This document shows positions 1 to 34,589 of a DNA stretch of 34,589 nucleotides, piece after piece. Below the pieces are notes generated by a model, which was not told the origin of the DNA, ran no database searches, and was given only the letters and a program-made list of their open reading frames with translations. Source of the stretch: Chiloscyllium plagiosum (Eukaryota). Each line of letters opens with the position of its first letter. Position 1 is the stretch's first letter. The stretch is from positions 9,491,611 through 9,526,199 of the forward strand of contig NC_057758.1 in NCBI RefSeq assembly GCF_004010195.1, read 5' to 3'. Position numbers and translations under genes: made by a program.

Positions 1-130
1 GGGTGGGGGAGTTCAGGTGGCGGTTAATATCGCGGCGGCAGTTGGCTATGAAGAGGTCGAGGGCAGGTAGGAGGCCAGCACGGGGTGTCCAGGTGGATGG
101 GGTGTGTTGGAGGCGTGAGAAGGGGTTGAT
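1..130 (-). mobile_element. Penelope-like retroelement ORF fragment (region N-terminal to the RT)
   Basis: Reverse complement reads PFSRLQHTPSTWTPRAGLLPALDLFIANCRRDINR, which I recognise as a shark Penelope-like ORF motif; runs off the window start. Confidence 0.75.
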
Positions 131-360
131 CTAGACCGAGTTATTGTTCCCTTTAACGGATGAAAGTAAGAGGTGAACTGAAACTGTTTGTTCAGTCACT
201 GTGATTATTGTGAGTCTCCATGGATTCTAATTAGGCTGGAGGATGATATCTATCGTTTAATGATAAATGAGCTCCTGTCAATGTGTTATCTCATAGTATG
301 AGCGGGTGTATCAACCAATGCACTAACAAGGATCAGCAGCTCCAGGGAGAGAGAAAGGAA

Positions 361-580
361 AGATCAGAATCTTAGAACAATAGGCTGGAATGTCCTAGCG
401 ATGGATCAGAATCTGAGAACTATAGACTGGAAAGTTAGAGCCATGCATCAGAGTCTGAGAACAATGGAATGGAACGTTATACCAATGGATCAGAATATGA
501 GAACATTAGACTGGAACGTTTCAACAGTGGATCAGAATCTGAGAACAATACACTGGAATGTTACAACAAAGGACAGGAGT
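361..580 (+). repeat. 42-bp coding minisatellite, 5 units plus a partial sixth
   Basis: Units start at 361, 403, 445, 487, 529 and 571 (partial); consensus about GGATCAGAATCTGAGAACAATAGACTGGAATGTT..A.CAAT, encoding about MDQNLRTxDWNVxx. Confidence 0.95.
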
Positions 581-707
581 TTATCTGGGACTATTTGGCA
601 CCTTTCTACATATTATGGCCAATTGTCATTATCATGGCGCATCTATTTTGCTCTTCACATTGTTCAATACTTTTATTACCCTTTCCTGGCTACTGTGGGT
701 GTCCCTG
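401..707 (+). CDS. GPR139-like: First coding exon of a rhodopsin-class GPCR, shark GPR139/GPR142-like family (repeat ectodomain + first half of TM1)
   Basis: Open frame from ATG 401 to ...ALHIVQYFYYPFLATVGVP-G|GTAAG (donor at 708, phase 1). YYPxLxxVGVP followed by an intron matches the start of TM1 in the GPR139/142 family as I recall it. N-glycosylation sequons NVS and NVT are present. The ORF-track extension to 751 is intron read-through. Confidence 0.75.
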
Positions 708-2354
708 GTAAGTTTTACTGTCCTGTTAAAATATCTATAAAAATATGTTGAATTGTATTGCTATTCTTTTATTTTACACTACACTCTTTGCATTATTATG
801 ATTCCTGCTAAGATTCTGAATGCATGTAATAACTCTACAAACCATTACTAACTGCTTCAATGAACTTGTTCATTCACTCTCCCACTCTTTGCTTCTGTCC
901 CTCCTCTGTATCTCTGTTGACCTACTCAGTTTCAGCTATCAGCCACAATTCATTGTATCACTGTCCTTGTTATTTAAATATTGGGAACATGGAGGTCACT
1001 ATCTTCTGTTTCAGTTACAAACTCCATTTTCTTCCTTTGTCTCCACATATCTCTGGCCAATATCTGAGGCTAAAACAGACGAATCACAACTGTGATGATC
1101 CCGTTGACCACGAGCTGATTCCTGACAGCAGACGAAATTTAAACTATGAACACCTCCAGAATATACTTCACTGGTTCAGCCCATCTCCTATTTGAAACCT
1201 GAGCTATTAAATACTGTCTTACTGATGTCAATAATCTGTTCCTGACACATCTAGTATCAAGTCTGCTGAAGTAAATCTGAGTCGCTACTATTCAGTCAAA
1301 CAATCATGTACACACACAGACACACACAGTCCAACCATTCACCTACCTAGCGACATAACTGTCAGAGATCCATTTAGTGTCACTAACAGCATGGGCTGCA
1401 ATATTCCCCGTTCTAGACGGTTATATCGTGCAAGGAAAGTAGCAACTTACTGGCAAAGGTTTGCAATGCATCCTATCCCTGGGCAGATAGCTCAGTTCAT
1501 TTATATACGCAGCAGCAGTCTGCACAGTTCTCTATGCTGGGCTGTATATTGCTCCAGTTAATGGTGTTTAGGCTGGTTCTGTGGAGCTGATTCAGAATTT
1601 AATGTCACGAATCATTTCAGCTCATCTGGCAATGGCTTTACGCAATTTTCTCATTCTTGTGATTTGGAGACTCGTAGGTCTCATACCTCCAGTTAGTCTC
1701 GGTCCCTAATCTTTTTCCCCCATGTTCTTACAACATTTTCTCAGTTAATTGATTGTCTGTTTCCATTTTCAATGTGATTTTTTTTAAATGTCCCTCCATA
1801 TCTTTCCCAGGTCTTTGTTTTTATTTCCCCAGTATATCAAGTGCTGGCATTGTGAAATTTTGAAACAATGAAATGGTGTGTATCCGTTTGTTGTTCACAT
1901 CCTGGGGTGTTCCATGGTGTGCTCCATGTTGGACAGGGCGTTTTAGCTGCACTGAATCGCGTCTTTGAAACGTGGTCTGTCCCTCTCAGATGATCGCACT
2001 GTCAATAATATGAGGAAGCCCACTTGAATATTATTGTGAAAGGACCATGCATCGAACTTGTAGCTGACGAGATCCTGACAGACTCCTGTCTTTGAAATCA
2101 TCGTGGAGGTACTGTGGATGGTTTGCAGGAGGTTATGCTGTGAGCTGCCTCAGACATTCAATGAAATCTGAGCATGTAGTCGCCCAACTCTGGACGGATC
2201 ATGAGGATGTAGTGATAGTATCTGAGAGTGCAACATGAACAGCAAATGGAGCACAGGCTGCAGAGAATGGAAACTCTGAACCCACAGAGTATTGTGGTGA
2301 AAGAGATCTACTGCATCCACCCCGGGATTTCTGAGAACAGCGTCCATAAAATCA

Positions 2355-2930
2355 TTGAGATATACAGTACAGAAACAGACGTTTAAGTCCAACTTATACA
2401 TGCCGACCAGATATTCCATATCAAACTCGAGCTATTTACCAACATCTGAATCATATCCATCTGAACGTTCCGATTTATGGATCCATGCAAATGCATTTTA
2501 AATATTGTAATTGTGGCATCCTCTACTACCCTCTCTGTCAGTTAATTCCAATCACACTCTTTGTGAAAATATTGTCCTTAGGTCCCTTTTAAATTTTGCC
2601 CCTCTGATTTTAAACCTATGCCCTCTGATTCCCTCACTCTGTGCAAAATATCCTGTGTATTCCCCGTATACATGTTTCTCATCACATTATAAACATCTAT
2701 ATGGTCACCTCTCAGTGTATGGTAATCCGGGGCAACAGCCCTCACCTTTTCAGCCTGTCTGTTTAGCTCAATTCATCCAACAATGGCAACATCCTTGTAA
2801 ATCTTTCCTGAACCATTTCAAATTCCACAACACCCTTCCTATAGTAGGGCTAAATACAATATTTCAATAATAGTCCATCCAATGTGCTGTACAGCCACTA
2901 TATCTCCTCCCAGCTCCGATATTCAATGCA
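2355..2930 (-). mobile_element. CR1/HER1-type LINE, 5'-truncated 3' end, decayed
   Basis: Reverse complement of CR1 ORF2 C-terminus and 3' UTR (..TACAGTACAGAAACAGAC..GTCCAAC..CATGCCGACCAGATA..), homologous to the plus-strand tail at 22240-22315. Confidence 0.75.
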
Positions 2931-3465
2931 TTGATCAATTATTTCCAGAAATTTCTGTTCTTGAACAAGTTCCAAAGACGGCTGTCAAAGCTGCTCAAAC
3001 GCCGTGTCCAATATGGAGTGCCATCAACTCGGAAGTGAAAGATTATGTAAAGTGGACAAATCTATTAGTTCTGAAACTAGATAAGGCTGGCATCATTGAC
3101 ACGACAGAGCTCTTAAACATGGTCATGGAGAGAAACAGAGGGATACACATTCACTTTAAACAAAGAAGATGACACTACAGGAAGTAAAGATATTCAGATG
3201 AATATGTTAAACGTTTTTGAGGTATGTGACAAATTGGAGGCGCGTCACCAGGGAGTGACTCTCAGAAGAATAAGAACATTAAAACTGAAGTGTTAGCATC
3301 CGAAACCAGAGTAGGTCACTGAATAAAAGGCTCTAGGGGGAATGTGTCTCAGTGTGAATTGGGATCAGGCAGCAGAACAGCATTGCAGATATTGAAGCTA
3401 TAACTAAGCATCCATGTGGTGTTGTAGACCACAGCAGAGTCAGGAGAAGAAGAACTGTATTCAAG

Positions 3466-3886
3466 ATTTGTAGATGCCGGTGTTGGACTGGGGTATACAA
3501 AGTTGAAAATCGCATAACACCAGGTTATATTCCAACAGGTTTGAATGACCAGATAATGAAGATTAGAATCAGTCTGACCATTGTAGCACAGACAGTCTCA
3601 CACAGAGAAGCTTACGCCTTCAACACATTATCTGGGCAAACACGACAACAATTGTGAATGTTCACTTGAAAATATAACTTTATTCATAAATGTTGCGATT
3701 TACATATGAAAGAACTGAAACAAACATGGTTATTCTGACAGATGACAGATTTAACAATTAATCCAGGTCTTTTTCAATATATAATTTCAGTTACATCACA
3801 CTGTAAACTTTGGTATAAATTCTGTGTCTCCAAAACCACCCGATTGAGGAGCAGCACTCCGAAAGCTAGAGCAGGACTATAACCTG
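3466..3886. mobile_element. Non-autonomous Penelope-derived element with near-perfect target-site duplication
   Basis: Flanked by GAACTGTATTCAAG (3452-3465) and GAATTGTATTCAAG (3887-3900). Inverted terminal motif CCAGGTTATA (3520) / TATAACCTGG (3878). Degenerate hammerhead-like CCGATTGA-GGAG-CAGCA-CTCC-GAAAGC at ~3840-3866. Confidence 0.65.
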
Positions 3887-4034
3887 GAATTGTATTCAAG
3901 CACACTCTTTAACTTTTTAGCCTGGAGAATCCCTCAGTCTATTATTACCATCAATGGTTCGGCGTCAAATGTGGATGGACATGCCAGGGTCAGAACCGTG
4001 CGCACTGAAAACTGATGAAAATGCGTTAAGTACA

Positions 4035-4350
4035 ATAAAACCACAAGTCATAGAAGCAGAAATTAGGTCAATCAGCCCATCGAGTCTGCTCCACCATCCA
4101 ATCATTGCTGGTAGGTTTCTCAACGCCATTCTACCTCTTTCTCCCCATAAAACCTTGATTCCCTTTACAATCAAGAATCTATCTATCTCTGTCTTGAATA
4201 TACTTAATGACCTGGCCTCTACAGCTTGCTGTGGCAGTGAAGTCCATAGATTCCTCACTCTCTGGCTGAAGAAGTTTCTCCTTATCTCCGTTCTAAAAGG
4301 TCTTCCCTTTACTCTAAGGCAATACTCTCTGGTAGTCGTCTCTTCTATAA
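4035..4350 (-). mobile_element. CR1 LINE 3' fragment
   Basis: Minus ORF ...NLWTSLPQQAVEARSLSIFKTEIDRFL... is the CR1 ORF2 C-terminus, followed by the 3' UTR. Confidence 0.85.
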
Positions 4351-4357
4351 ATTCTAT

Positions 4358-4466
4358 AAGAGCTTATGCTTGAAACCTCGACGCCACCCCCCCCCCCACC
4401 TCCACCCCCCAGCTCCTCGGATGCTGCCTGACCGGCTGTGTTTTTCCAACACCTCACTTTTTGACA
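4358..4466 (+). mobile_element. Penelope-derived terminal-repeat fragment
   Basis: GCTTATGCTTGAAACCTCGAC...GCTCCTCGGATGCTGCCTGACCGGCTGTGTTTTTCCA matches the right arm of the palindromic element at 6035-6100. Confidence 0.65.
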
Positions 4467-4467
4467 C

Positions 4468-4755
4468 AGAATAAGGGATGCCAATTAGAAACTGAGATAC
4501 AACTAAATTCTTTCTCACAGAAGGACGTGAATGTCTGGAACTGCCTAACCAAGAGAGTTGTGGAGGCTAGATCAATGAATGTATTTACGAGCAGGACAGA
4601 AGTGTTTTGACACTTTGGCGAGCTCAGGGGTAAAAGGAATTAACAGGAAATTTTGCTTGAGCCCTGGAGCAGATCAGCCATGCTCTCATTGAATGTCCGG
4701 GCAGGGTTGAGGGCCGAATGTCCTCCTTCTGTTCATACTTCGCATCTTTTTATAT
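4468..4755 (+). mobile_element. CR1 LINE 3' fragment
   Basis: TTCTTTCTCACAGAAGGACGTGAATGTCTGGAACTGCCTA..GAGAGTTGTGGAGGCT (FFSQ..WN.LP..VVEA remnant) and tail GGGCCGAATGTCCTCCTTCTGTTC. Confidence 0.75.
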
Positions 4756-5443
4756 TCTGTTATTGAAAATTAACTGGATATTTTCCCAGCAATAGTGTTG
4801 TGCAGTGTTGCATTCAGAGACAGCAGAGGATTAGATTGAGCTAACCGTGGGTGAGATATGGAGGCTGCATTCACAGTGAATCTGAGCATGATCAACATCT
4901 GTGGCAGAAGTTGCAGAGAGGGACAGCCTGGAAAGAGGGTTGAGCGGGGAGGGGGCTTCTATCTAATCCAGGCTGGGCGTTCCAAGAATATTTCCCAATC
5001 TACACTTAAACTGTCTTGGAATTATCTCACGAGTCATTTTATGCAGCTGGACTCTTATTTTATTCCTGTCTCCTTCTATAAACCGGGTGGAATATTTACA
5101 GCTTTTCTATGTTCTGGCGCTACTCCCACATATAAGGAAGAAAGATTTAAAGAAATGAAGGTTTATGGTCCATCCCTCAGTAACCCGGATGCATTTCAGT
5201 CAGACCGAGTAAATGTTCACTTCTTTTGTGAGATGAATAGTGATGTGGGCAGGGCTTTAACTGAATCTGGCTGTTCGGTGACTGCAATTAATATCAGCAT
5301 CCATTGATTCCTATTATGCCAGTGGAGTGTCTCCATCTTTTGACAATAACTGGGCTCCGTTCAATGTGTTACATTGTTTTATGAGCAGGAACATCACGTA
5401 AAGCACTCACAATCATCAGCAGCTCCAGAGAGAGGGGGAAGGA

Positions 5444-5856
5444 GAGATCAGAATCGAAGTACATTGGACTGGAATATTCCAAAATGAGGAGATACTGAAG
5501 ACTGCAGGGCCTGGAGGAGGCACAGCAGGTAAGGTAGCATCCGAGGAGCAAGAGAGTCTAAGCTTGGGGCAGGACCCTTCTTAACTCCTGAAGAAGGCTC
5601 CTGCCCGAAACGTCGAATTTCCTGCTCCATGAATACTATGTCACCTCCTGTGCCTTTACCCGCGTCATTTTCCAATATTGGAATAGAATCTCAGACCAAT
5701 AGATTGCAATGTTCCAACAATGGACAGGAGTGTATCCTGAGATTATTGTTATTTTTTCTACATATTATGATGCATTGTCATTAATTTCGCAAATCAGAGT
5801 TGCACTTCTCATTATTCAGTATTATTGTCATATTCTGATTATCGTTGGTGTGCCTG
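5444..5856 (+). pseudogene. GPR139-like: Pseudo-exon 1 of a paralogous GPR139-like receptor
   Basis: Two 42-bp-type units (GATCAGAATCGAAGTACATTGGACTGGAAT at 5446; AGAATCTCAGACCAATAGATTGCAATGTT at ~5686) separated by a TE. The MDRSVS frame hits TGA and is shifted relative to ..TYYDALSLISQIRVALLIIQYYCHILIIVGVP. The donor is G|CTAAG instead of G|GTAAG. Confidence 0.75.
5487..5668. mobile_element. Palindromic Penelope-derived non-autonomous element
   Basis: Inverted arms GGCACAGCAGG..CATCCGAGGAGCA..GGGCAGGACCCTTC / GAAGGCTCCTGCCCGAAACGTCG..TGCTCCATGAAT..CCTCCTGTGCC. Hammerhead-like core CTGAAGA (5588-5594)...GAAAC (5607-5611). Absent from copy 1. Confidence 0.7.
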
Positions 5857-5911
5857 CTAAGTATAATCGTCCATTTCACATTTCTTTCAATCATGCATCA
5901 CTATATTACAG

Positions 5912-6115
5912 GTAGAAAATTAGGACTGCAGATGCTGGAGATCAGAGTCAAAGACTGTGGTGCTGGAAAAGCACAACTGCTTAGGCAGCTTCTGAGGAAC
6001 AGGAGAGTTGACGTTTCGGGCATAGACAGAGAAGTGCTTACACCCGAAACGTCGACTGTTCTGCTCCTCGGATGATTCCTGACCTGCTGTGCTTTACCAA
6101 AACTATACTCTTTAT
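5912..6115. mobile_element. Palindromic Penelope-derived non-autonomous element
   Basis: Arms AAAGCACA..AGG..TCTGAGGAACAGGAGAGTTGACGTTTCGGG / CCCGAAACGTCGACTGTTCTGCTCCTCGGA..CCT..TGTGCTTT. Same family as 5487-5668; absent from copy 1. Confidence 0.75.
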
Positions 6116-6954
6116 TACTGTATTACAGTTCCTTTCATTTACTGTACATTTGCTACTGTTACTGTTCCTGCTGAGTCTTTCAATTCAGATAATCACTCCG
6201 CAAACCATTGCGAACTGCATCAGTGAACTTGTTCATTCACTCTCTCCTTCTTAGCTTCTATCCCTCATGTATTTCTCTGTTGACCTATTCCATTTTATCT
6301 GTGATCCACGATTCATTGTTTCTCTGCCCCTGTTATTTAAATATTGGGAGCATGGAGGTCACCATCTTCTGTTTTGTTTAAAAAAAAACTCAATTTCCTT
6401 CCAATGCCTCCATCCCACCCCTGGCCAGTATCTGAAGGTAAAACAGACGAATCAGAACAGTGGTGATCCCTTTGGACATGAGTTGACTCCTTACACCAGA
6501 CCGAGATGATTCCTAATTTTACCTATTAACACCTCCAGAGTACACTTCACTGGCACATCCCATCTGCTATTTGAACCTTGAGGTATGAAATCATAATGAT
6601 GTCAATAATCTGTTGTTGACACTCCCAGTTTCAACCTGCAACAGCAACTATGAGTCAATACCCCATGGCTTGTCTCCGAACTGATACCAAAACCCAATCC
6701 ATGCATCATTCCTGTGCATACTGATCTGTATTGTTGTTTAGTCGGGAAAAAAATCTTTATTTTAGTGTTCTGAGACATATCTTCACATCTGCCTACGAAA
6801 CGTCACTCATTCTCTCTCTCTCTGTCAATTAGCAAGAACCTAGTTTTACTTGCACTCCACCCCATCCACCTCCACTGCGTGACATAACATCATATCAAGA
6901 TGAAAATACAGAACAAATCATATGACATCCATTAACTAGATACTTGAAATAACA

Positions 6955-7130
6955 TGCATGCATACACAAACACGCACGCACAGACACAAACTCACCCACA
7001 CATAGACACAGGTAGACACACACTCACACACATACAGACACACATACTCACACACATAACAATACACATACAGACAGACAGACGCACACACAAGCATGGG
7101 TGTGCGCGTGCGCGGGCACACATACACACA
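6955..7130. repeat. Degenerate (CA)n-rich microsatellite
   Basis: CACA/CAGA/CATA runs; explains the H/T-rich and V/C-rich ORFs here. Confidence 0.9.
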
Positions 7131-7219
7131 AAAAACTTTCCTTATCCTGATGAAATGTAGATATACAGAAATAAACTTTTGGGGCCGCATTTACTGTGTC
7201 TCAAAACATAGGCTGCAAA

Positions 7220-10200
7220 ATGTACATGCAGGACGTATTGCACCTGAACTAGACGGGCACAAATGTCCTGGGTGGAAGATTTGCGCGTGTGATTCGGAGG
7301 GTTTAAACAGGTTTGGCAGGGGGGAGGGAATCAGAGCCACATGTATGAGAGGGGGTCAGTTGCAGACGGGACAGTGACAGGATATATTGAATCTATCAGG
7401 AAGGATTCTCACGCGATGAACCAAAAGGATCAGTTAAAGTGTGTCTGCTTTAATGCAAGGAGTATCCGAAATAAAAGTGATAAACTTAGAGCATGGATCA
7501 GTACTTGGGGCTACGATATTGTGGCCATAACGGAGACGTGGGTTTCACAGGGACAGGAATGGTTGCTTGGTGTTCCAGGGTTTAGAACGTTTAAAAAGAA
7601 CAGGGAGGGTGGCAAAAGAGGAGGGGGTGCAGCATTGCTAATCACAGAGTGCATCACAACTATAGGAACAAAGGTTGCTGAGGAAGGCTTATCTACTGAA
7701 TCGGTATGGTGGAAGTTATGAACAGCAATGGAACAGCCACTGCATTGGGGGTTTTCTACAGAACACCTAATAACAGTAGAGAGATTGAAGATCTCATAGG
7801 CGGGCAGATTCTGGAAAAATGCAAAAGTAGCAGGGTTGTTGTTATGGGTGATTTCAACTTTCCCAACATCAACTGGAACCTCCTTAGTGCAGATGGATTG
7901 GATGGAGCCGTTTTTGTCAGGTGTGTTCAGAAGGATTTCCTTACACAGTATGTAGTCAGACCAACGAGGGGAGAGACTATTTTGGATTTGGTGCTTGGCA
8001 ACGAACCAGGACAGATGTCCGATCTCACGGTGGGAAAGCACTTTGGTGAAAGTGATCACAACTGCCTCACATTTAACATAGCCTTGGAGAAGGAAAGGAG
8101 CAGTTACCGAGGGAAGATGTTTAATTGGGGAATATTAAATCACGACGCTATCAGACAGGATTTTGCAAGTACAGACTGGGAGCAATTGTTCCATAAAAAG
8201 GGCACAGCAGACATGTGGACACTATTTAAGAAGCAGTTGTTGCGAGTGATGCACAAATTTATTCCTCTGAGACAGGTAAGAAGGGGTAAGCTTGAGGAAT
8301 CTTGGGTGATGAGAACAGAGGAACTTCTCATCAAAAGGAAGAAGGCAGCGTGCATAAGGTGGAGGAAGCAAGGATCTAGCACAGCTTTAGAGGATTACAG
8401 GCTTACAAGAAACGAGCTCAGAAATGATCTGAGGAGAGCCAGGAGGGGGCACGAAAAAGGTTTGGCAAGAAGGATTAGGGAGAACCCAAAGGAATTTTCC
8501 TTATACATGAGGAATAAGAGAATGATCAGGGAGAAGGTAGGGCCGATCAGGGATAGCGGAGGGAACTTGTGCGTGGAGTCTGAGCAAATAGGAGAAGCCC
8601 TAAATGAGTTTTTGCTTCGGTTTTCACCAAGGAAAGGGACCTTGATGTAAATGAAAACTTAGAGGAGCTGGGATACAGTCTTGACCAGATCAAGATTGAT
8701 GAAGTTGATGTGCTAGGCATTTTGGAAAACATTAAGATTGATAAGTCCCCAGGGACAAATCAGATTTATCCTAGGCTGCTCCGGGAAGTGAGAAAGGACG
8801 TGGCGGGGATATTTGCCTCCTCACTCTCCACAGGAGTCATACCAGAGGATTAGAAGGAGGCGAATGCTGTTCCTCTTTACAAGAAGGGTAATAGGGAAAT
8901 CCCTGGCAATTACAGACCAGCCAGTCTTACGTCTGTGGTCAGCAACGTATTGGAAATAATTCTGAGGGATAGGATTTATGACTATTTGGCAAAGCATAGT
9001 GCGATTAAAGGCAGTCAGCATGGCTTTGTGAGGGGCAGATCATGCCTCACAAATCTTATTGAGTTCTTTGAAAAGGTGTCACTGCTATTGGGCGGCACGG
9101 TGGCACAGTGGTTAGCACTGCTGCCTCGCAGCGCCAGAGACCCGGGTTCAATTCCCGACTCAGGCGACTGTGTGGAGTTTGCACGTTCTCCCCGTGTCTG
9201 CGTGGGTTTCCTCCGGGTGCTCCGGTTTCCTCCTACAGTCCAAAGATGTGCAGGTCAGGTGAATTGGCCATGCTAAATTGCCCGTAGTGTTAGGTAAGGG
9301 GTAAATGTAGGGGTATGGGTGGGTTACGCTTCGGCGGGTCGGTGTGGACTTGTTGGGCCGAAGGGCCTGTTTCCACACTGTAAAGTAATCTAATCTAATC
9401 TAAAGTGTCAAGACAGGTCGACAGCAGTCGAGCGGTGGATATGGTGTATGTGGACTTCAGTAAAGCATTTGTTCGGGTTCCCCAAGGTAGACTCATTCAT
9501 AAAGTCAGGAAGTATGGGATACAGGGAGATTTGGCTATCTGGATTCAAAATTGGCTGGCTGACAGAAGGCAGAGAGTGGTTGCAGATGGAAGATAGTGTT
9601 GAGTGGGATCCCGCAGAGCTATGTTCTTCAGCCCCCACTCTTTGTAGTTTTTATAACTGACTTGGATGAGGAGGTTGGAGGTGGGTTAGTAAATTTGCAG
9701 ATGACACCAAGGTGGTTCGTGTCATCGAAAGTATAGAAGGCTACTACAGGCTGCAGTGTGAATAGACAGTATGCAGAGCTGGGCTGAGAAATGGCAGATG
9801 GAGTTCAACTTGGATGAATGCGCAGTGATACATTTTGGAAAGTCAAACCCGAATGCTGAATATAGGATTGAAGGCAGGATTCTTGGCGTTGAGGAACAGA
9901 GGGATGTGGGTGTGCAACTACATAGATCCCTCAAAGTTGCCACCCAAGCAGGTAGGATTGTTGAGAAAGCATATGGTGTTTTGTCTTTCATTAACAGGGG
10001 GATTGAGTTTAAGAGCCTTGAGATTTTGCTACAGTTCTACAAGTCCCTAGTGAGACTACGCTTGGAATATTGTGTCCGGTTCTGGTCGCCCGACTATAGG
10101 ACATGTACAGAGGTTTTGTAGAGGGTGCAAAGAAGGTTTACCAGGATGCTGCCTGGACTGGAGGGTTTGCCTTATGAAGAAACGTTGAATAAGCTCGGAC

Positions 10201-10598
10201 TTTTCTCTCTGGAGAGAAGGAGGAAGAGAGGAGACCTGATCGAGGTGTATAAATTTATGAGGAATAGATAGAGTCAATAGCCAGAGACCTTTACCCAGGG
10301 CAGGATTGACAGGTACGAGAAGCCATAGCTTAAGCTATTAGGCGGAAGGTACAAATGAGACGTCAGAGGTAGGTTCTTTACGCAGCGTTGTGAATTCATG
10401 GAATGCGTTGCCAGCTGAGGTGGTGGAAGCAGAGTGCTTGGGGACATTTAAGCGACTGCTGAGCATGCACATGGGTTGAAGTCAGTTGAGGGATGTGTAG
10501 GTTAAGTTACTATATTTTACATTAGGATTAAATCTCGGCACAACATCGTGGGCCAAACAGCCTTTTCTATGCTGTACTTTTTTATGTTCTATGTTCTA
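7220..10598 (+). mobile_element. CR1/HER1-type LINE: end of ORF1, near-complete but disrupted ORF2 (APE endonuclease + RT) and 3' tail
   Basis: ORF1 end D.LHLN*TGTNVLGGRFA. EN motifs CFNARSIRNK, DIVAITETW, MGDFNFP, PTRGETILDLVL, SDHN. RT motifs QHGFVRGRSCLTNL, YVDFSKAF, KFADDTK (9691). Tail (TATGTTC)n at ~10583-10598. Several frameshifts and stops. Confidence 0.95.
9082..9404 (+). mobile_element. HE1-type tRNA-derived SINE, full length, inserted in the CR1 RT
   Basis: GGGCGGCACGG head, A box TGGCACAGTGG, B box GGTTCAATTCC, core TGTGGAGTTTGCACGTTCTCCCCGTGTCTGCGTGGGTTTCCTCCGGG, CR1-like tail and (TAATC)n. TSD GTGTCA at 9076-9081 and 9405-9410; removing it restores EFFEKVSRQVD. Confidence 0.92.
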
Positions 10599-11603
10599 AA
10601 TGTCACCATGTGATGTATTTTTCTAGTGCAACTATAGTATCAATATACTGGCCAGTAGTTGTTATGGTCCTATGCTGTGCAGGTTGTCCAGTTTACTGGA
10701 TAGTATTCTAGAGAGGTCTACACAGCTATCCATATTGGGCAGTCACCTTGTCCCACGTTATGGTGTCCGGACTGGTTCTGTAAGTCAGATCCACAATTTG
10801 ATGTAAAAAACTATTTCATCTGATTTGGCAATGCATTCATTTAATGTTCTCATTCTGGTGATATGCACCCTTCAGGTCTCACTCCTCCAGTCAGTCCCAG
10901 TTGCCTGTCTTTATCACAGTACTTTCACATGTTCGCAGTTAATCCATCTTCCGTTTTTATATTTAATGTGAATCGTTCTGTTCCTCCATATATTTTCCTG
11001 GCCTTGATTTTGAGCTCTCTAGTGTATCAATTATTGGCATCTTGAAGCTCAGAAACAATGAAATGGTGTATGTCGGGCTGTTGCTCACTTCCACATATGA
11101 GCCGTACGGTGCTCCATGTTGGACATCAAGTTTCAGCAGCTCTTACTCACCTCTTTGAAACTTTGTTGTAACTGTCCACAGAACGCCTGTGTTTGTCCCT
11201 CTCAGCTGATCGTATAGTCAGTACCACAAGAAACTCAATCGAATATTATTGTGAAAGACCGGGCATCTAATATATGTGCATGGCTCAGATAAAAAGGGAG
11301 ACGTGAGGATTTGGTGCTGCAACTCTGGATGTAGCATGGGGACTGCGGTTATAGCATTTGGGTCGGCACCATAAATTTTAAAAATGGCTACTGAGAGAGT
11401 AAGCTCTGAAACCACGGAGAGAGTTTGTGAGTGGGACAGGGATTTGCCGTATCCATCCCGGGTTTTCCAAGGACATCTTCTTAAGCTACGCTTAACTGAA
11501 GAGTAAGGTGTGAAGGGAAACTTGATTGAACAAGAAGCTGATCACAGTGCGATGTCGTCTTCTTCCAAACGAACTGTAGCTTCACACCATGGGGAGGAAG
11601 GTA

Positions 11604-11868
11604 CTGCCATTGGCTGTTAGGGTCACAATTTCATTCAGCTTCTATGATCCGGGGTTATCCTCCCACACTTGCTGTGTAGATCTTTTGTTGGGCTTAATAT
11701 TTCATTGAAAAACGTAATCAGAACACAAGAACGAGGAGCTATTGAACTCCTAGAGCCTGATTCAGCATTTGATACAGTTATGGCTGATCGCATCTTAGCC
11801 TCCCTTCAGATTCATGCTAATCTGCCATTGGCTGTTAGGGTCACAATTTCATTCAGCTTCTATGATCC
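11604..11868 (+). repeat. Perfect 47-bp direct repeat (11604-11650 and 11822-11868)
   Basis: CTGCCATTGGCTGTTAGGGTCACAATTTCATTCAGCTTCTATGATCC occurs twice with no mismatch. Confidence 0.95.
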
Positions 11869-12950
11869 ACTTAATGTATCAGTAGTCTTGAAGTCTAGGG
11901 TAGTGAATTCCTTGGTTGATAAAAATTTCACAGGAATAATTTCACCTCACCTCTCCTTAAATCTGCTACACTATATCCAAAATCTATGACCTCTTATTCT
12001 AGATTGCTCTACATGAAGAAACATCCTCTCTGCATCTACGTTACCAATTCCTTTAACGTGTTACGTATCTTGATTAGATCTTCTCTCATTCTTCTAAACT
12101 CCAGAGAGCATAAGATTGAATTGCTCCATCTCTCCGTATAACACAAAGCCGTTTTCTTGGAAACCGACCTGTTCTGACCTTCCCACAAATACATCCCTCG
12201 TCCCCAACACTACACAGGGTGCTCGAACTGCGGTCTCACTAATTCCTTGCATAAGTGCAGTCACTTCTCTACTTTTAAGATACTTTCCTTTTGGAATAAT
12301 TGTAGAAATTCCATTTTTCTTCCATATTACCTGCTGTACCCGTGAGTTATTTTTCTGCAGTTCATGAACGAGAACACCCAGATCTTCTGCGCTGTAGCAC
12401 TCTAAAGCTTCTCGTCATTTTGATAATAAACTGCTTTTCTATTCGTCTGACCAAAATACACATCGTCAGACTTACCAACATTAAATTTCAGCTGTGATAT
12501 TTTGGCCCTTTAATCTAATTTTTCAAGACATTTGTAGTTGTCTTATTTCTTCCTTGCAACTTCCATTCAAAGCTATTTCAGCATCATCTGAAAAGTTGAT
12601 TATTGCATTTTCCATGTCTTTATCCATGTCATTAAAATATATCGGAAATAGTTGGGGGCCTGAGTACCAAACCCTTTGGCACCACATGAGTTTCATCTCA
12701 TTTATCCCATCTCTCTGCATTTTTTTTTGTATATTCAATCCGCCATCCAAACTAATAAATGGCAGTAAATGCCACGTGATCTAATCTTGCATGTCAGTAT
12801 TTGATGCAGCATATTATGGAATGCCTTCTGGACGTCTCGATACTCTACACCTGCAGGATCTCCGTTATCCAGCTTGTTTGTCATCTGTTCAATGAACTCG
12901 AGAGAATTGCTCAACCACTATTAATCCTTTAGAAAACATTGCTGATGCTG
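11715..12950 (-). mobile_element. Old CR1 LINE 3' part (RT to tail)
   Basis: Minus ORF ..GPQLFPIYFNDMD..IINFSDDAEI.. (degenerate FADD); tail GAACACAAGAAC at ~11721. Confidence 0.8.
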
Positions 12951-29863: not shown

Positions 29864-31212
29864 GTTCAGACTAAACTGTTAGGGAGAGCTAATGAGGTAT
29901 TTGCCGTGCTGTCAGATAAGGGGTCAAGGGCTTATGAAGAGGTTAAATTGGCTATTTGAAGTGTTTATGAATTGGCACCTGAAGCATATAGATAACTGGT
30001 GAAAATCATAAGAAGGAACCAGGTCTGACTTATGTTGAGTTCGATTTTGATCGATGGGTGCGTGCTTTGAAAATCGATGGGGCTTTTGAGGTTCTCTTAA
30101 AGAGTATTCTGCTGGAGGAATTTTAAACACGCTGCTCGAGATGGTAACAATTCACGTGGAGGAACAGACATTTCACGAAGTGAGAAGGAGCAGCAGAATT
30201 AGCATATAAATACATGTTGGGGCATTAAGCAAGCTTCCAGACAGAAATTTGTCCCATGGGGATAAAAGTTGGGAGAAGGGGGGATCGTACACCATTAAAC
30301 GAAGAGTAGAGAGCGCTGGAAACAATTTCACACAGGATTTAAAATAAACCAGACCAAGAGGGTGGGAGGGGGTGAAAGGCTTCTGGTGTTTCCAATGTTG
30401 TAAAGTGGGACACGTAGAGTCACAGTGCTAATCATTAAAGAAAGGCTTTGTGGGTAACAATGTGGTATAATAAGCGAAGCCAGTGGCTTTATCGATGGTA
30501 GTAAAGGAGGCTCCAAGAAGATCCAAGGTGCTGCAGGAGAGTGTGCAACCAAGGCGGGGCTGAGTGTGGAGTTGGTATCTGATCTCTACAAAGAACTTGC
30601 CTCTGTGGGTAAAGGTTACTCAGAAAGAGCAGGTGGAGAAGGGCAAGAAATTATAATTTTGATTCATACATGCACTCTTTCTGATCTGTGACCGGAGAGT
30701 GTGGTAATTTGTGAGATAGATTGTGGGATAGATTGACAGACATGTAGCGTTCCCCGATGCAAGATCTGGTTGAAATGCCAACTTCAAACTAGGAATGTTA
30801 CAGTGGGAATGATTGACAGAGTGTCAGTTCCAGGAATTCAGTTTGTTCTTGGGAATTATTTGGCAGGATCCAACGTGACATCCCTTGTTGTAGAGAAGCC
30901 CAAGGAAGACCAAAATGGTGAGGAGTTAAAACAGATTTCCCAGACTGTGTTATAACCAGATCCCACTATCATAGGTCACAGCACGAACCCAAAAGTAAAG
31001 AGAACGATGAAGGAGTTGAGGTTCAGTTAGTGAACACCCGTTTGACGTAGTGGTGCAGGAAAAGCCTGAACAGGCAGAGGGTCATATAGACGTATTTAGA
31101 CGTGAAAGGCTAAGTGACTTGCAACAGCAAGTCAAGACAATAAAAGATATATATGTGAATGCGTACTTTGAAAAGGAGGCAAGCATGGACTACATTCTAA
31201 ACGGTGAGAAAA

Positions 31213-32157: not shown

Positions 32158-34589
32158 TTACAATAGACAATAGGTGCAGGAATAGGCCATTCTGCCCTTC
32201 GAGCCTGCACCACCATTCAATATGATCATGGCTGATCATTCCTAATCAGTATCCTGTTCCTGCCTTATCTCCATAACCCTTGATTCCCCAATCCTTGACA
32301 GCTCTATCCAACTCTTTCTTAAATGAATCCAGACACTGGGTCTCCACTGTCGTCTGGATGAAGAAGTTTCTCCTCATCTCTGTCCTAAATGGTCTACCCC
32401 GTACTTTTAAGCTGTGTCCTCTGGTTCGGCACTCACCCATCAGCAGAAACATGTTTCCTGCCTCCAGAGTGTCCAATCCTTTAATAATCTTATACGTCTC
32501 AATCAGATCCCCTCTCAGTCTTCGAAAAAAAGCGTATACAGGCCCAGTCGCTCCAGTCTTTCAGCGTATGGTAATCCCGCCATTCCAGGAATTGACCTCG
32601 TGAACCTACGCTGCACTCCCTCAATAGCCAGAATGTCTTTCCTCAAATTTGGAGACCAGAACTGCACACAATATCCCAGGTGTGGTCTCACCAGGGCCCT
32701 GTACAGCTGCAGAAGCACCTCTTTGCTTCTATACTCAATTCCTCTTGTTATGAAGGCCATCATGCTATTAGCTTTCTTCACTACCTGCTGTACCTGCATG
32801 CTTGCTTTCATTGACTGGTATACAAGAACACCCACATCTCTTTGTACTGCCCCTTTACCTAACTTGACTCCATCTAGGTAGTAATCTGCCTTCCTGTTCT
32901 TGCCACCAAAATGGATAACCATACACTTATCCACATTCATTCTGCCATGAATCTGTCCACTCACCTAGTCTGTCCAGGTCATCCTGTAACCTCCTAACAT
33001 CCTCCTCACATTGCACCCTGCCACCCAGCTTTGTATCATCAGCAAATGTGCTAATGTTACTATTAATAACATCTTCTATATCATTAACATATATTGTAAA
33101 AAGCTGCGGTCCCAGCACTGATCTCTGCGGAACACCACTGGTCACCGCCTGCCATTCCGAAAGGGAGCCAGTTCCCGAGCCACACATTCAAGTCCATTAT
33201 CTTCCTATTCCTATTCCTGGCCTCTCTAGCCCCTTGCATTGAAATAAATGCAGTTTAATTTATTAGCCTTACCTTGTCCCTGCCTGCCCTTACTGTTTGA
33301 CTCGCTTCTGTTCTCAACTGTACAAGTCTCAGATTGATCTCTTTCCTCACTATCTCCCTGGGTCCCACCTCCACGCGCCCCACCGCCCCCCCCCCTCAAC
33401 CTGCCAGTATATTAGTCCCCTTCCAATTTAAGTGCAATTTGTCCTTCTTGTTCCACAGGAACTGATCCTGAATCTATCGAACTCTGGAAAATAATCATCA
33501 ACACATCCACGATTTCTCGAGCCACCTCCTTCAGTACCCTGGGATGGAGACCATCAGGCCCCGGGGACTTATCACCCTTCAGACCTAACAGTCTCTCCAA
33601 TACCAATTCCTGGAAATATAAATTCCCTTCAGTTCAGGTCCTTCAGCCACTGTTACCTCTGGGAGATTGCTTGTGTCTTCCCCAGTGAACACAGATCTGA
33701 AGTACCAATTCAACTCTTCTGCCATTTCTTTGTTCCCCATAATATATTTCCCTGTTTCTGTCTTCAAGGACCCAATTTTAGTCTTAACCATTTTTTTCAT
33801 TTTCACATACCTAAAAAAGCTTTTACTATCCTCCTTTGTATTTTTGGCCAGTTTACTTTCGCACCTCATTTTTTCTCCACGTATTTCCTCCTTAGTAATC
33901 CTCTGTTGTTCTTTAAAAGCTTCCATTTTCCCACTCATTTTTGCGATGTTATACTTTTTCTCTTTTGACTTTATATGAAGAACCACCCCTGCCTCCTCAT
34001 AGTATCCTTCTTCCTCGCAAGGTTTGTAGCTCAGGTTGAGGTTCAGCAAGCAAACCTACACCCTAATCCTTCTTCCTTTTTGGAATGAACTGATCCTGCA
34101 TCTTCTGCATTATACCCAGAAATACCTGCCATTGCTCCTCCACTGTCATCCCTGCTAAGGTATTGCACCATTGAACTTTGGCCAGCCCCTCCCTCATAGC
34201 TACATAGTTCCCTTTATTCAACTGAAATATTGTCACTTCCGATTGTACCCTCTCCCTTTCAAATTGCAGATTGAAGCTTGTTGTATTATGGTCACTACTT
34301 CCTAATGGCTCCTTCACTTCGAGGTCCCTGATCAATTCTGGTTCGTTGCACAATACCAGATCCAGAATTGCCTTCTCCCTGGTAGGCCCCAGCACCAGCT
34401 GTTCTAAGAATCCATCTCAGAGGCACTCCACAAAGTCTCTTTCTTGAGGTCCAATACTATCCTGATTCTCCTAATCTACCTGCATGTTGAAACCCCCCCA
34501 AACAACTGTAGTAACATCTTTGCGACAGGCCAATTTCAGCTCCTGATTCAACTTACATCCGACATCCAGACTACTGTTTGGGGGCCTGT
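32158..34589 (-). mobile_element. Relatively young CR1 LINE ORF2 (EN to 3' tail), internally rearranged
   Basis: Minus ORFs [75 protein letters not shown]. Tail ACAATAGACAATAG at ~32160. Runs off the window end. Confidence 0.93.

Follow-up and report, generated by a model that had tools for sequence, protein, structure and literature searches.

At the left end of the window (the whole stretch of DNA analysed, 34,589 nucleotides, to which all positions refer) lies what, by homology, is the first exon of a shark receptor gene, in which a 42-bp sequence is tandemly repeated ahead of the first transmembrane helix (TM1). A second, disabled copy of the same exon is located about 5 kb downstream. 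The features of the two copies are as follows.

133..361, plus strand: conserved upstream region with a GA-rich leader, putative promoter and 5' UTR; aligns to the second copy at 5202-5443
near 255-267, plus strand: AT-rich, TATA-like stretch in the upstream region, with a presumed promoter role
298..375, plus strand: out-of-frame upstream ORF of 25 codons
362..403, plus strand: unit 1, probably 5' UTR; the in-frame series of ATGs begins at its last codon, 401-403, with G at both -3 and +4
404..445, plus strand: unit 2, without a sequon (Lys replaces Asn); terminal ATG at 443
446..487, plus strand: unit 3, without a sequon; internal ATG at 464, terminal ATG at 485
488..529, plus strand: unit 4, sequon NVS at 515-523; the internal ATG at 497 is the last in-frame ATG, and the terminal ATG has become GTG
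530..571, plus strand: unit 5, sequon NVT at 557-565; a decayed codon, AAG, stands in place of the family's proximal ATG
572..628, plus strand: post-repeat ectodomain with a predicted amphipathic helix at about 581-610 (AlphaFold model of the relative P0077 and column profile)
629..707, plus strand: first two thirds of TM1, ending in the family motif YYP..A..GVP (family profile, E 5e-18)
708..713, plus strand: intact splice donor GTAAGT, phase 1; relatives have Val-Asn next after the motif
5202..6656, plus strand: disabled second copy, from the upstream region through exon 1 into the start of the intron
5488..5680, plus strand: palindromic insertion of about 190 bp that separates the two units of the dead copy (138 bases align to its reverse complement at 72% identity)

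The array was delimited by Tandem Repeats Finder at 362-563 (4.8 copies, 80% matches, 0% indels, score 243), and five whole units stand in register over 362-571, any two of which differ at 7-11 of their 42 bases. A 21-bp sub-period is also discernible, at 52% matches as compared to 75% at 42 bp. From ATG 401 to position 706 the frame is open for 102 codons with zero stops, the exon ends at G707, and the intron begins at 708 in phase 1. No in-frame ATG occurs between the stop before 302 and ATG 401, and unit 1 is in frame with the rest because the period is 42 bp and for no further reason. In unit 5, the column of the lost proximal ATG is a methionine in 61 of 80 relatives. All of the anatomy described by the earlier sequence-only reading, namely five in-frame 42-bp units, two sequons, a TM1-like end and a GT donor, is present.

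The array is not a product of chance, and near-identical contigs in public DNA runs argue that it is probably not an assembly artefact either. These contigs, from three DNA samples in two studies, cover 164-421, 392-547 and 534-1089 (X1), 120-512 (X3) and 552-725 (X8); none spans the whole array, and one of the runs is possibly the source sample. Within unit 2, the near-identical X1 and X3 contigs carry conservative non-synonymous differences at 422 and 438 (Ile to Val and Arg to Lys), which are possibly allelic. One X3 contig matches 488-563 exactly with different units before it, a pattern in which allele and paralog are not separable. The upstream region is 72% identical to that of the second copy over 176 bases, paralogous contigs pile up from about position 161, and the leader is present in RNA reads from a paralog.

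The exon product matches 16 of 39 candidate proteins, all from sharks, of which 15 are named 'probable GPR139' and one is an uncharacterised shark model; the GPCR match that had been sought for it therefore exists, and together with the family profile it supports the assignment as the first exon of a class A GPCR. Against Pfam, the exon frame alone has no match under E 0.1. Four of the five full-length relatives that were scanned pass the curated cut-off of Pfam 7tm_1, and the predicted model matches class A structures; the full-length relatives are class A (rhodopsin-like) GPCRs. One of them, P0012, matches 2162 of 5363 candidates at E up to 1e-5, a set that possibly includes other receptors, and the best 120 of the 2162 are all from sharks. 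In a library clustered at 50% identity, at least 116 representatives match at E up to 1e-30, in agreement with the expanded shark receptor family that had been proposed. Ten representatives were looked up: three are from a skate, an electric ray and a catshark, five are from a coelacanth, a salamander, two teleosts and an amphioxus, and two are nameless. Judged by homology, then, this is the first exon of a member of a shark subfamily of orphan class A GPCRs, itself part of a large GPR139-related expansion in cartilaginous fishes.

The subfamily's hallmarks of one or more units, a post-unit helix, the TM1 motif and a phase-1 donor are all found in exon 1, the intron position in the relatives being taken from the end of homology and not from their DNA. 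The shark models named 'probable G-protein coupled receptor 139', a name assigned automatically at NCBI, share the exon-1 layout, the 14-residue unit and the TM1 motif; they come from Stegostoma, Rhincodon, Chiloscyllium, Heterodontus, Scyliorhinus, Mustelus, Heptranchias and Pristiophorus, and the closest tails are those of zebra shark and whale shark models. Relative to these models, the present copy has four coding units, which places it near the top of the range (four or five in 12 of 110), its units are diverged and not homogeneous, and its exon 2 was not found in the window.

To place the repeat in its family, units were counted in the proteins related to the exon product. A total of 136 proteins was examined, 22 of which were dropped for want of an exon-1 anchor, and 110 of the remaining 114 are full-length. 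Among these 110, no unit is present in 16, one in 40, two in 27, three in 15, four in 9 and five in 3, so the modal translated copy number is one; nine units occur in one broken model. The variation between paralogs is in frame, and the claim that unit number varies among them is borne out. These relatives are automatic gene models with start sites as predicted, and the sample is biased to proteins like the exon-1 product. Nine of the 16 models without a unit begin straight after it, the others being partial, mis-modelled or of a different type, and these 9 of 110 indicate that the unit is dispensable. In the other direction, 21 of the 94 unit-bearing full-length models have no methionine between the last unit and TM1, which means that the unit must be coding there if the genes are translated. 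Variants of the unit, with 13 residues or half a unit, also occur.

In a tree built from the seven-transmembrane part only, a single clade of 51 rows (SH-aLRT 100) takes in all 40 rows with units and none of the 52 rows outside carries one, while within the clade unit number has changed repeatedly. The tree is a quick version, with 103 of 179 eligible rows and without GPR139 or GPR142, and many of the outside rows have mis-predicted N-termini. At the DNA level, among 12 of 50 contig rows with pseudogenes included, each of the 5 backward joints within the array amounts to a net 42 or 84 bases, while 3 of the 4 joints that cross the GA-rich leader are not multiples of three; this is as expected if a UTR leader precedes modules with an ATG at the end of each. 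The longest arrays, of 9 units in P0003 and about 6 in P0204, are both found in models named 'uncharacterized'. P0003 and the closest relative, P0004, are broken after TM2-TM4, and long arrays may be enriched in dying genes.

We consider it probable, though far from assured, that the repeat is a 14-codon start module, copied in frame, that gives the receptor a near-neutral, unstructured tail. The default of the subfamily would be a single module, composed of two 21-bp halves, with an ATG in strong context ahead of the N-terminal helix. The module would be copied in 42-bp steps, presumably by unequal recombination or slippage. Since 42 is divisible by three and every copy comes with an ATG, each addition moves the first start upstream and lengthens the protein by 14 residues without a shift of frame. 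This extra tail would be unstructured, variably glycosylated and apparently close to neutral, with 0 to 5 copies tolerated. In the present copy, unit 1 would be UTR and units 2-5 coding, if translation starts at the first in-frame ATG; as the two most proximal ATGs are decayed, a protein made from it carries at least about two units. Receptor specificity would be borne by the post-repeat helix and extracellular loops (ECLs) 2 and 3. The sequence-only reading had taken the array for a co-opted minisatellite; the tree and the copy counts contradict this and show the 14-codon start module to be native to the subfamily. Repeats that are entirely UTR, which that reading named as a refutation, do not hold for this copy if it is translated, the last in-frame ATGs being at 485 and 497. 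The anatomy, the homology, the spread in copy number and the absence of a selection signal on the tryptophan are direct observations, and what they most likely describe is a flexible tail that the receptor can do without, not a ligand carried within the protein.

Selection on the unit was assessed from the five units here and from the relatives. The five units carry 26 substitutions from their consensus, 19 non-synonymous and 7 synonymous (pN/pS 0.64-0.76), a test whose power is low with so few changes. As had been noted, R, T, W and V are kept in all five units without stops or indels, and Q is also invariant (5 of 14 residue columns); the observation is correct, but much of it is expected by chance. 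Given 26 substitutions, the probability of no stop is 0.36, the probability that the tryptophan is kept in all five, given no stop, is 0.21, and at least five invariant columns arise with a probability of 0.11. The absence of both stops and indels has a joint chance of about 0.05-0.10, at the rate of 8 gap openings per 107 mismatches seen in the duplicated intron, and is a weak hint of frame maintenance. Across the relatives, the tryptophan is kept in 159 of 179 units, comparable to N3 (161), L4 (164) and N10 (163), and its replacements are mostly L, R, S or G. Neither these counts nor the five-unit substitution test gives a signal of a special role for the tryptophan. Over 80 subfamily rows, column conservation is 0.77 in the last unit, 0.77 in TM1 and 0.94 in TM3, and falls to 0.52 in the post-unit segment, 0.60 in ECL2 and 0.56 in ECL3. 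The unit consensus is nearly identical in distant sharks, and there may be real constraint on the unit at the DNA or protein level. An exact search of metagenome contigs with the unit pattern returned 0 matches.

Whether this particular copy is a live gene bears on how the array is read, and here two features lay beyond the earlier claims: exon 2 is not in the window and a dead exon copy is present. A search of the 33.9 kb downstream with 117 exon-2 queries and the family profile did not find exon 2; the queries produced a single weak match on the minus strand (E 0.016), besides LINE matches that trace to one faulty model, and the profile, with stops read through, matched at exon 1 and its second copy only. 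The window contains unread gaps of 251 N and 500 N. LINE fragments occupy 7400-10100 and 32500-34400, with an endonuclease at 7700-8647 (E 9e-10) and a reverse transcriptase at 8854-9273 (E 2e-4). Before the 500-N gap, at 31020-31211, a 64-residue frame matches the start of the family model P0186 over 47 residues at 60% identity; it has no Pfam match and is probably a repeat element wrongly joined into the P0186 model.

The dead copy retains two units, at 5446-5487 and 5681-5722, separated by the insertion, and is disabled by a stop, a frameshift, a 3-base deletion and a change of the donor GT to CT at 5857. The centre of the palindromic insertion (from 5588) has a CTGAAGA...GAAAC arrangement, related pieces of which lie at 4412-4440 and 5996-6098, and which we take to resemble the minimal hammerhead ribozyme core, as in Penelope-type elements. 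A search of positions 1-12000 against Rfam gave four matches at E 1.3-5, the level of chance, and did not report the insertion. A degenerate CA microsatellite (6964-7092) lies just past the point where the duplication ends. On the first copy, homology to the second stops at 133. A TATAAA at 5077-5082, 125 bases upstream of the homology end, has no counterpart in the window for the first copy, and may bear on whether that copy retained its promoter. Variable first exons that share one exon 2 were considered and gained no support, as the second exon-1 copy is dead.

Spliced RNA at the donor is absent among 8 reads from about 2/100 of one single-cell polyA run, a very shallow sample; none of the 8 is at least 95% alike to this copy, and the reads over the unit come from a decayed paralog. 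The idea that these reads represent another subfamily, whose UTR contains the unit, was rejected when the alignment showed a paralog of the same subfamily with a one-base deletion and two stops. A search across sequencing runs listed no RNA run for this sequence, a result that is neutral as to expression. Three DNA runs list no stop or frameshift variants in the exon, which is itself intact: its post-repeat part is without indels relative to the closest relatives and its donor, unlike that of the second copy, is preserved. This leaves two possibilities, an intron long enough to pass over the dead copy or the loss of exon 2. The chances that this copy is a live gene are about even.

The absence of exon 2 downstream, combined with the dead exon-1 copy at 5.2-6.7 kb, means that the copy may be an orphan. 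In the strong form of this alternative, the copy is an orphan exon or young pseudogene that lost exon 2, and its array grew or persisted without translation. The end of homology at 133, the broken models of P0003 and P0004, and the origin of the unit-bearing RNA reads solely in a decayed paralog are all in keeping with it, but the open exon, its donor and the lack of disabling variants run against it, the intron could exceed 34 kb or exon 2 could lie in one of the gaps, and intact receptors with 4-5 units exist. We regard it as unlikely, while giving it real weight.

The repeats could instead be a selected glycosylated spacer or shield of variable length, tuning surface delivery or ligand access. 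In favour of this, a sequon is present in 131 of 205 units, N10 is well kept (163 of 179), and the units are Thr-rich and predicted to be unstructured; two sequons occur in this gene. Yet these are in just 2 of the 4 coding units, the sequon Thr is among the least-kept positions (130 of 179, with Pro in 24), and in unit-like contigs from three DNA runs Pro accounts for about 90% of the summed depth at the +2 codon, a measure that includes pseudogenes and is not copy number. The sequons are labile across units, and there is nothing distal for a spacer to hold out. Selection for a spacer or shield, the main idea of the sequence-only reading, appears improbable.

The module could also act in cis, as a leader or start-codon element through which leaky scanning tunes translation while the peptide is irrelevant. 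Each unit typically ends in a strong-context ATG, the interval 298-497 holds five in-frame ATGs and short upstream ORFs, and some paralogs have a leader running into an ATG-less unit. Unit-like contigs are also far deeper than the TM1 part (in X1 at 88% identity, about 350,000 vs 5,900 summed depth, which is not copy number), a contrast that may instead arise from a multitude of units at each locus and from short contigs that overlap. Among this gene's units, changes are spread over the whole unit and no protected DNA motif has emerged, and we find a purely cis-acting role very improbable.

In the AlphaFold model of the four-unit relative P0077, built from a 95-row alignment, residues 1-58 have pLDDT under 50 (repeats 40-46), whereas the rest is at 78-98, with a confident helix at residues 61-70 followed by seven transmembrane helices; the rows of the structure alignment span 79-391 and stop short of the post-repeat helix. 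In this helix hydrophobic residues are kept at 61, 65, 68 and 72, so that one face is conserved, and the exposed positions between them are hypervariable and aromatic-rich. Variability within the subfamily is highest (conservation 0.52-0.60) in the post-repeat helix (572-628 and its equivalents in relatives) and in ECL2 and ECL3, a pattern expected of diversifying ligand-binding surfaces. A coiled coil was considered and rejected: the heptad pattern comes from the 7-residue sub-period, and weak coiled-coil Pfam matches in P0003 are all under the cut-off. A three-copy complex model was uninformative (score 0.02, with the alignment not used), and a search of the ESM Atlas with residues 1-60 gave a best score of 0.81, the level of chance.

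The pocket was compared with that of GPR139, for which Nohr et al. (PMC5430874) report that F109, H187, W241 and N271 matter for agonist activity and that R244 bonds in the model. With GPR139 numbering mapped from motifs, the aromatic floor is kept in the subfamily (F109 as Y or F in 77 of 80, H187 in 76 of 80, W241 in 80 of 80), and the polar anchors are lost (N271 to F in 70 of 80, R244 to L or F in 78 of 80); other columns include D at 3.37 in 80 of 80 and E at 5.39 in 73 of 80. A pairwise alignment had suggested that H187 was lost, and the profile alignment and column counts overturned this. As N271 and R244 are absent, the residue set for activation by L-Trp or L-Phe is incomplete, and binding of free L-Trp in the manner of GPR139 does not appear plausible, whereas an aromatic and perhaps cationic ligand would be plausible from these columns. 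The pocket leaves a small opening for a peptide-borne aromatic, which we infer would come more likely from the helix than from the repeat.

A combined possibility is that the receptors are self-gated: their own N-terminus, by way of the repeat tryptophan or the aromatic helix, would fill the pocket, and repeat number, set by recombination and leaky scanning, would define a masking tail for a protease cut at the basic residue of the repeat boundary. We hold this to be a long shot; were it true, the family would be a tunable set of protease or peptide sensors. The narrower proposal of the sequence-only reading, that the repeated tryptophan is a tethered or protease-released agonist of the receptor's own pocket, has hardly any likelihood. 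In its favour, the kept aromatic floor and the lost anchors for free amino acids would suit a peptide-borne aromatic side chain, Arg or Lys is kept at the repeat boundary in 75 of 80, and F38 of GPR20 (PMC12444479) provides a class A precedent for a built-in N-terminal agonist. Against it, the tryptophan is no better kept than its neighbours, the unit is missing from 9 of 110 intact models, five copies would gain little at a single-site pocket, AlphaFold gives the repeats no confident position, the sequence beyond the basic residue is hypervariable, and no conserved agonist peptide is found in all members.

Setting these alternatives beside the amplified start module, a real coding repeat remains in a real, poorly described receptor family, whose members can already be seen among public protein models. 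The literature searched, which did not take in most subscription journals or the supplements of shark genome papers, yielded no account of this family or of the repeat; a term search of the main text of the catshark genome paper (PMC11979771) returned no mention of GPR139 or GPR142, and the accessible portion of a GPR139 review (PMC12208981) does not mention sharks. Cartilaginous fishes have been described as GPCR-poor, above all in olfactory receptors, in passages of the whale shark paper (PMC8455134), and a family of at least 116 clusters with hypervariable outer surfaces goes against that view, which is the larger point. The repeat itself is a testable case in which a duplicated segment with a terminal start codon lengthens an N-terminus stepwise, many times independently. 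A neutral tail would be of modest, evolutionary interest, whereas one that gates the receptor would amount to a new way of controlling a GPCR.

Comparison with known receptors also corrects the misleading database name. Human GPR139 (with GPR142) is the best solved relative by sequence (E 2.7e-7; profile E 3.2e-14) and by Foldseek (7vug), and its structural alignment gives 24% identity, the N-terminus of the shark subfamily being longer. The review cited above (PMC12208981) reports GPR139 to be highly conserved in vertebrates, a degree of conservation that 24% identity does not approach, and a coelacanth orphan is nearer to the sharks at 32%. The early description as GPR139-like thus holds for a class A relative, but a distant one, and because the family is only distantly GPR139-like the pharmacology of GPR139 cannot be carried over; 'probable GPR139' is a label of convenience. 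Orphans related to GPR139 in coelacanth, salamander and teleosts are the nearest non-chondrichthyan relatives among those named, and have short N-termini without units and no large expansion that we could see. Fish and coelacanth orphans beside GPR139 were named GPR210A/B by Rinne et al. 2019 (PMC6504862), and it is our guess that the coelacanth, salamander and teleost relatives are these receptors.

Protease-activated receptors (PARs), adhesion GPCRs and GPR20 offer a second comparison, for in the sharks too an N-terminal aromatic or unmasked peptide that reaches the pocket is conceivable, and a confident helix follows the repeats. Unlike those receptors, the shark family has no single conserved agonist motif, and its unit is repeated, variable and sometimes absent. 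The coding VNTRs of GPIb-alpha, PSGL-1 and MUC1 resemble the shark repeat in being in-frame, Thr-rich, extracellular and variable in copy number. Those repeats sit between the membrane and a distal binding domain, whereas the shark repeat forms the extreme N-terminus, carries a start codon in each unit and varies between paralogs.
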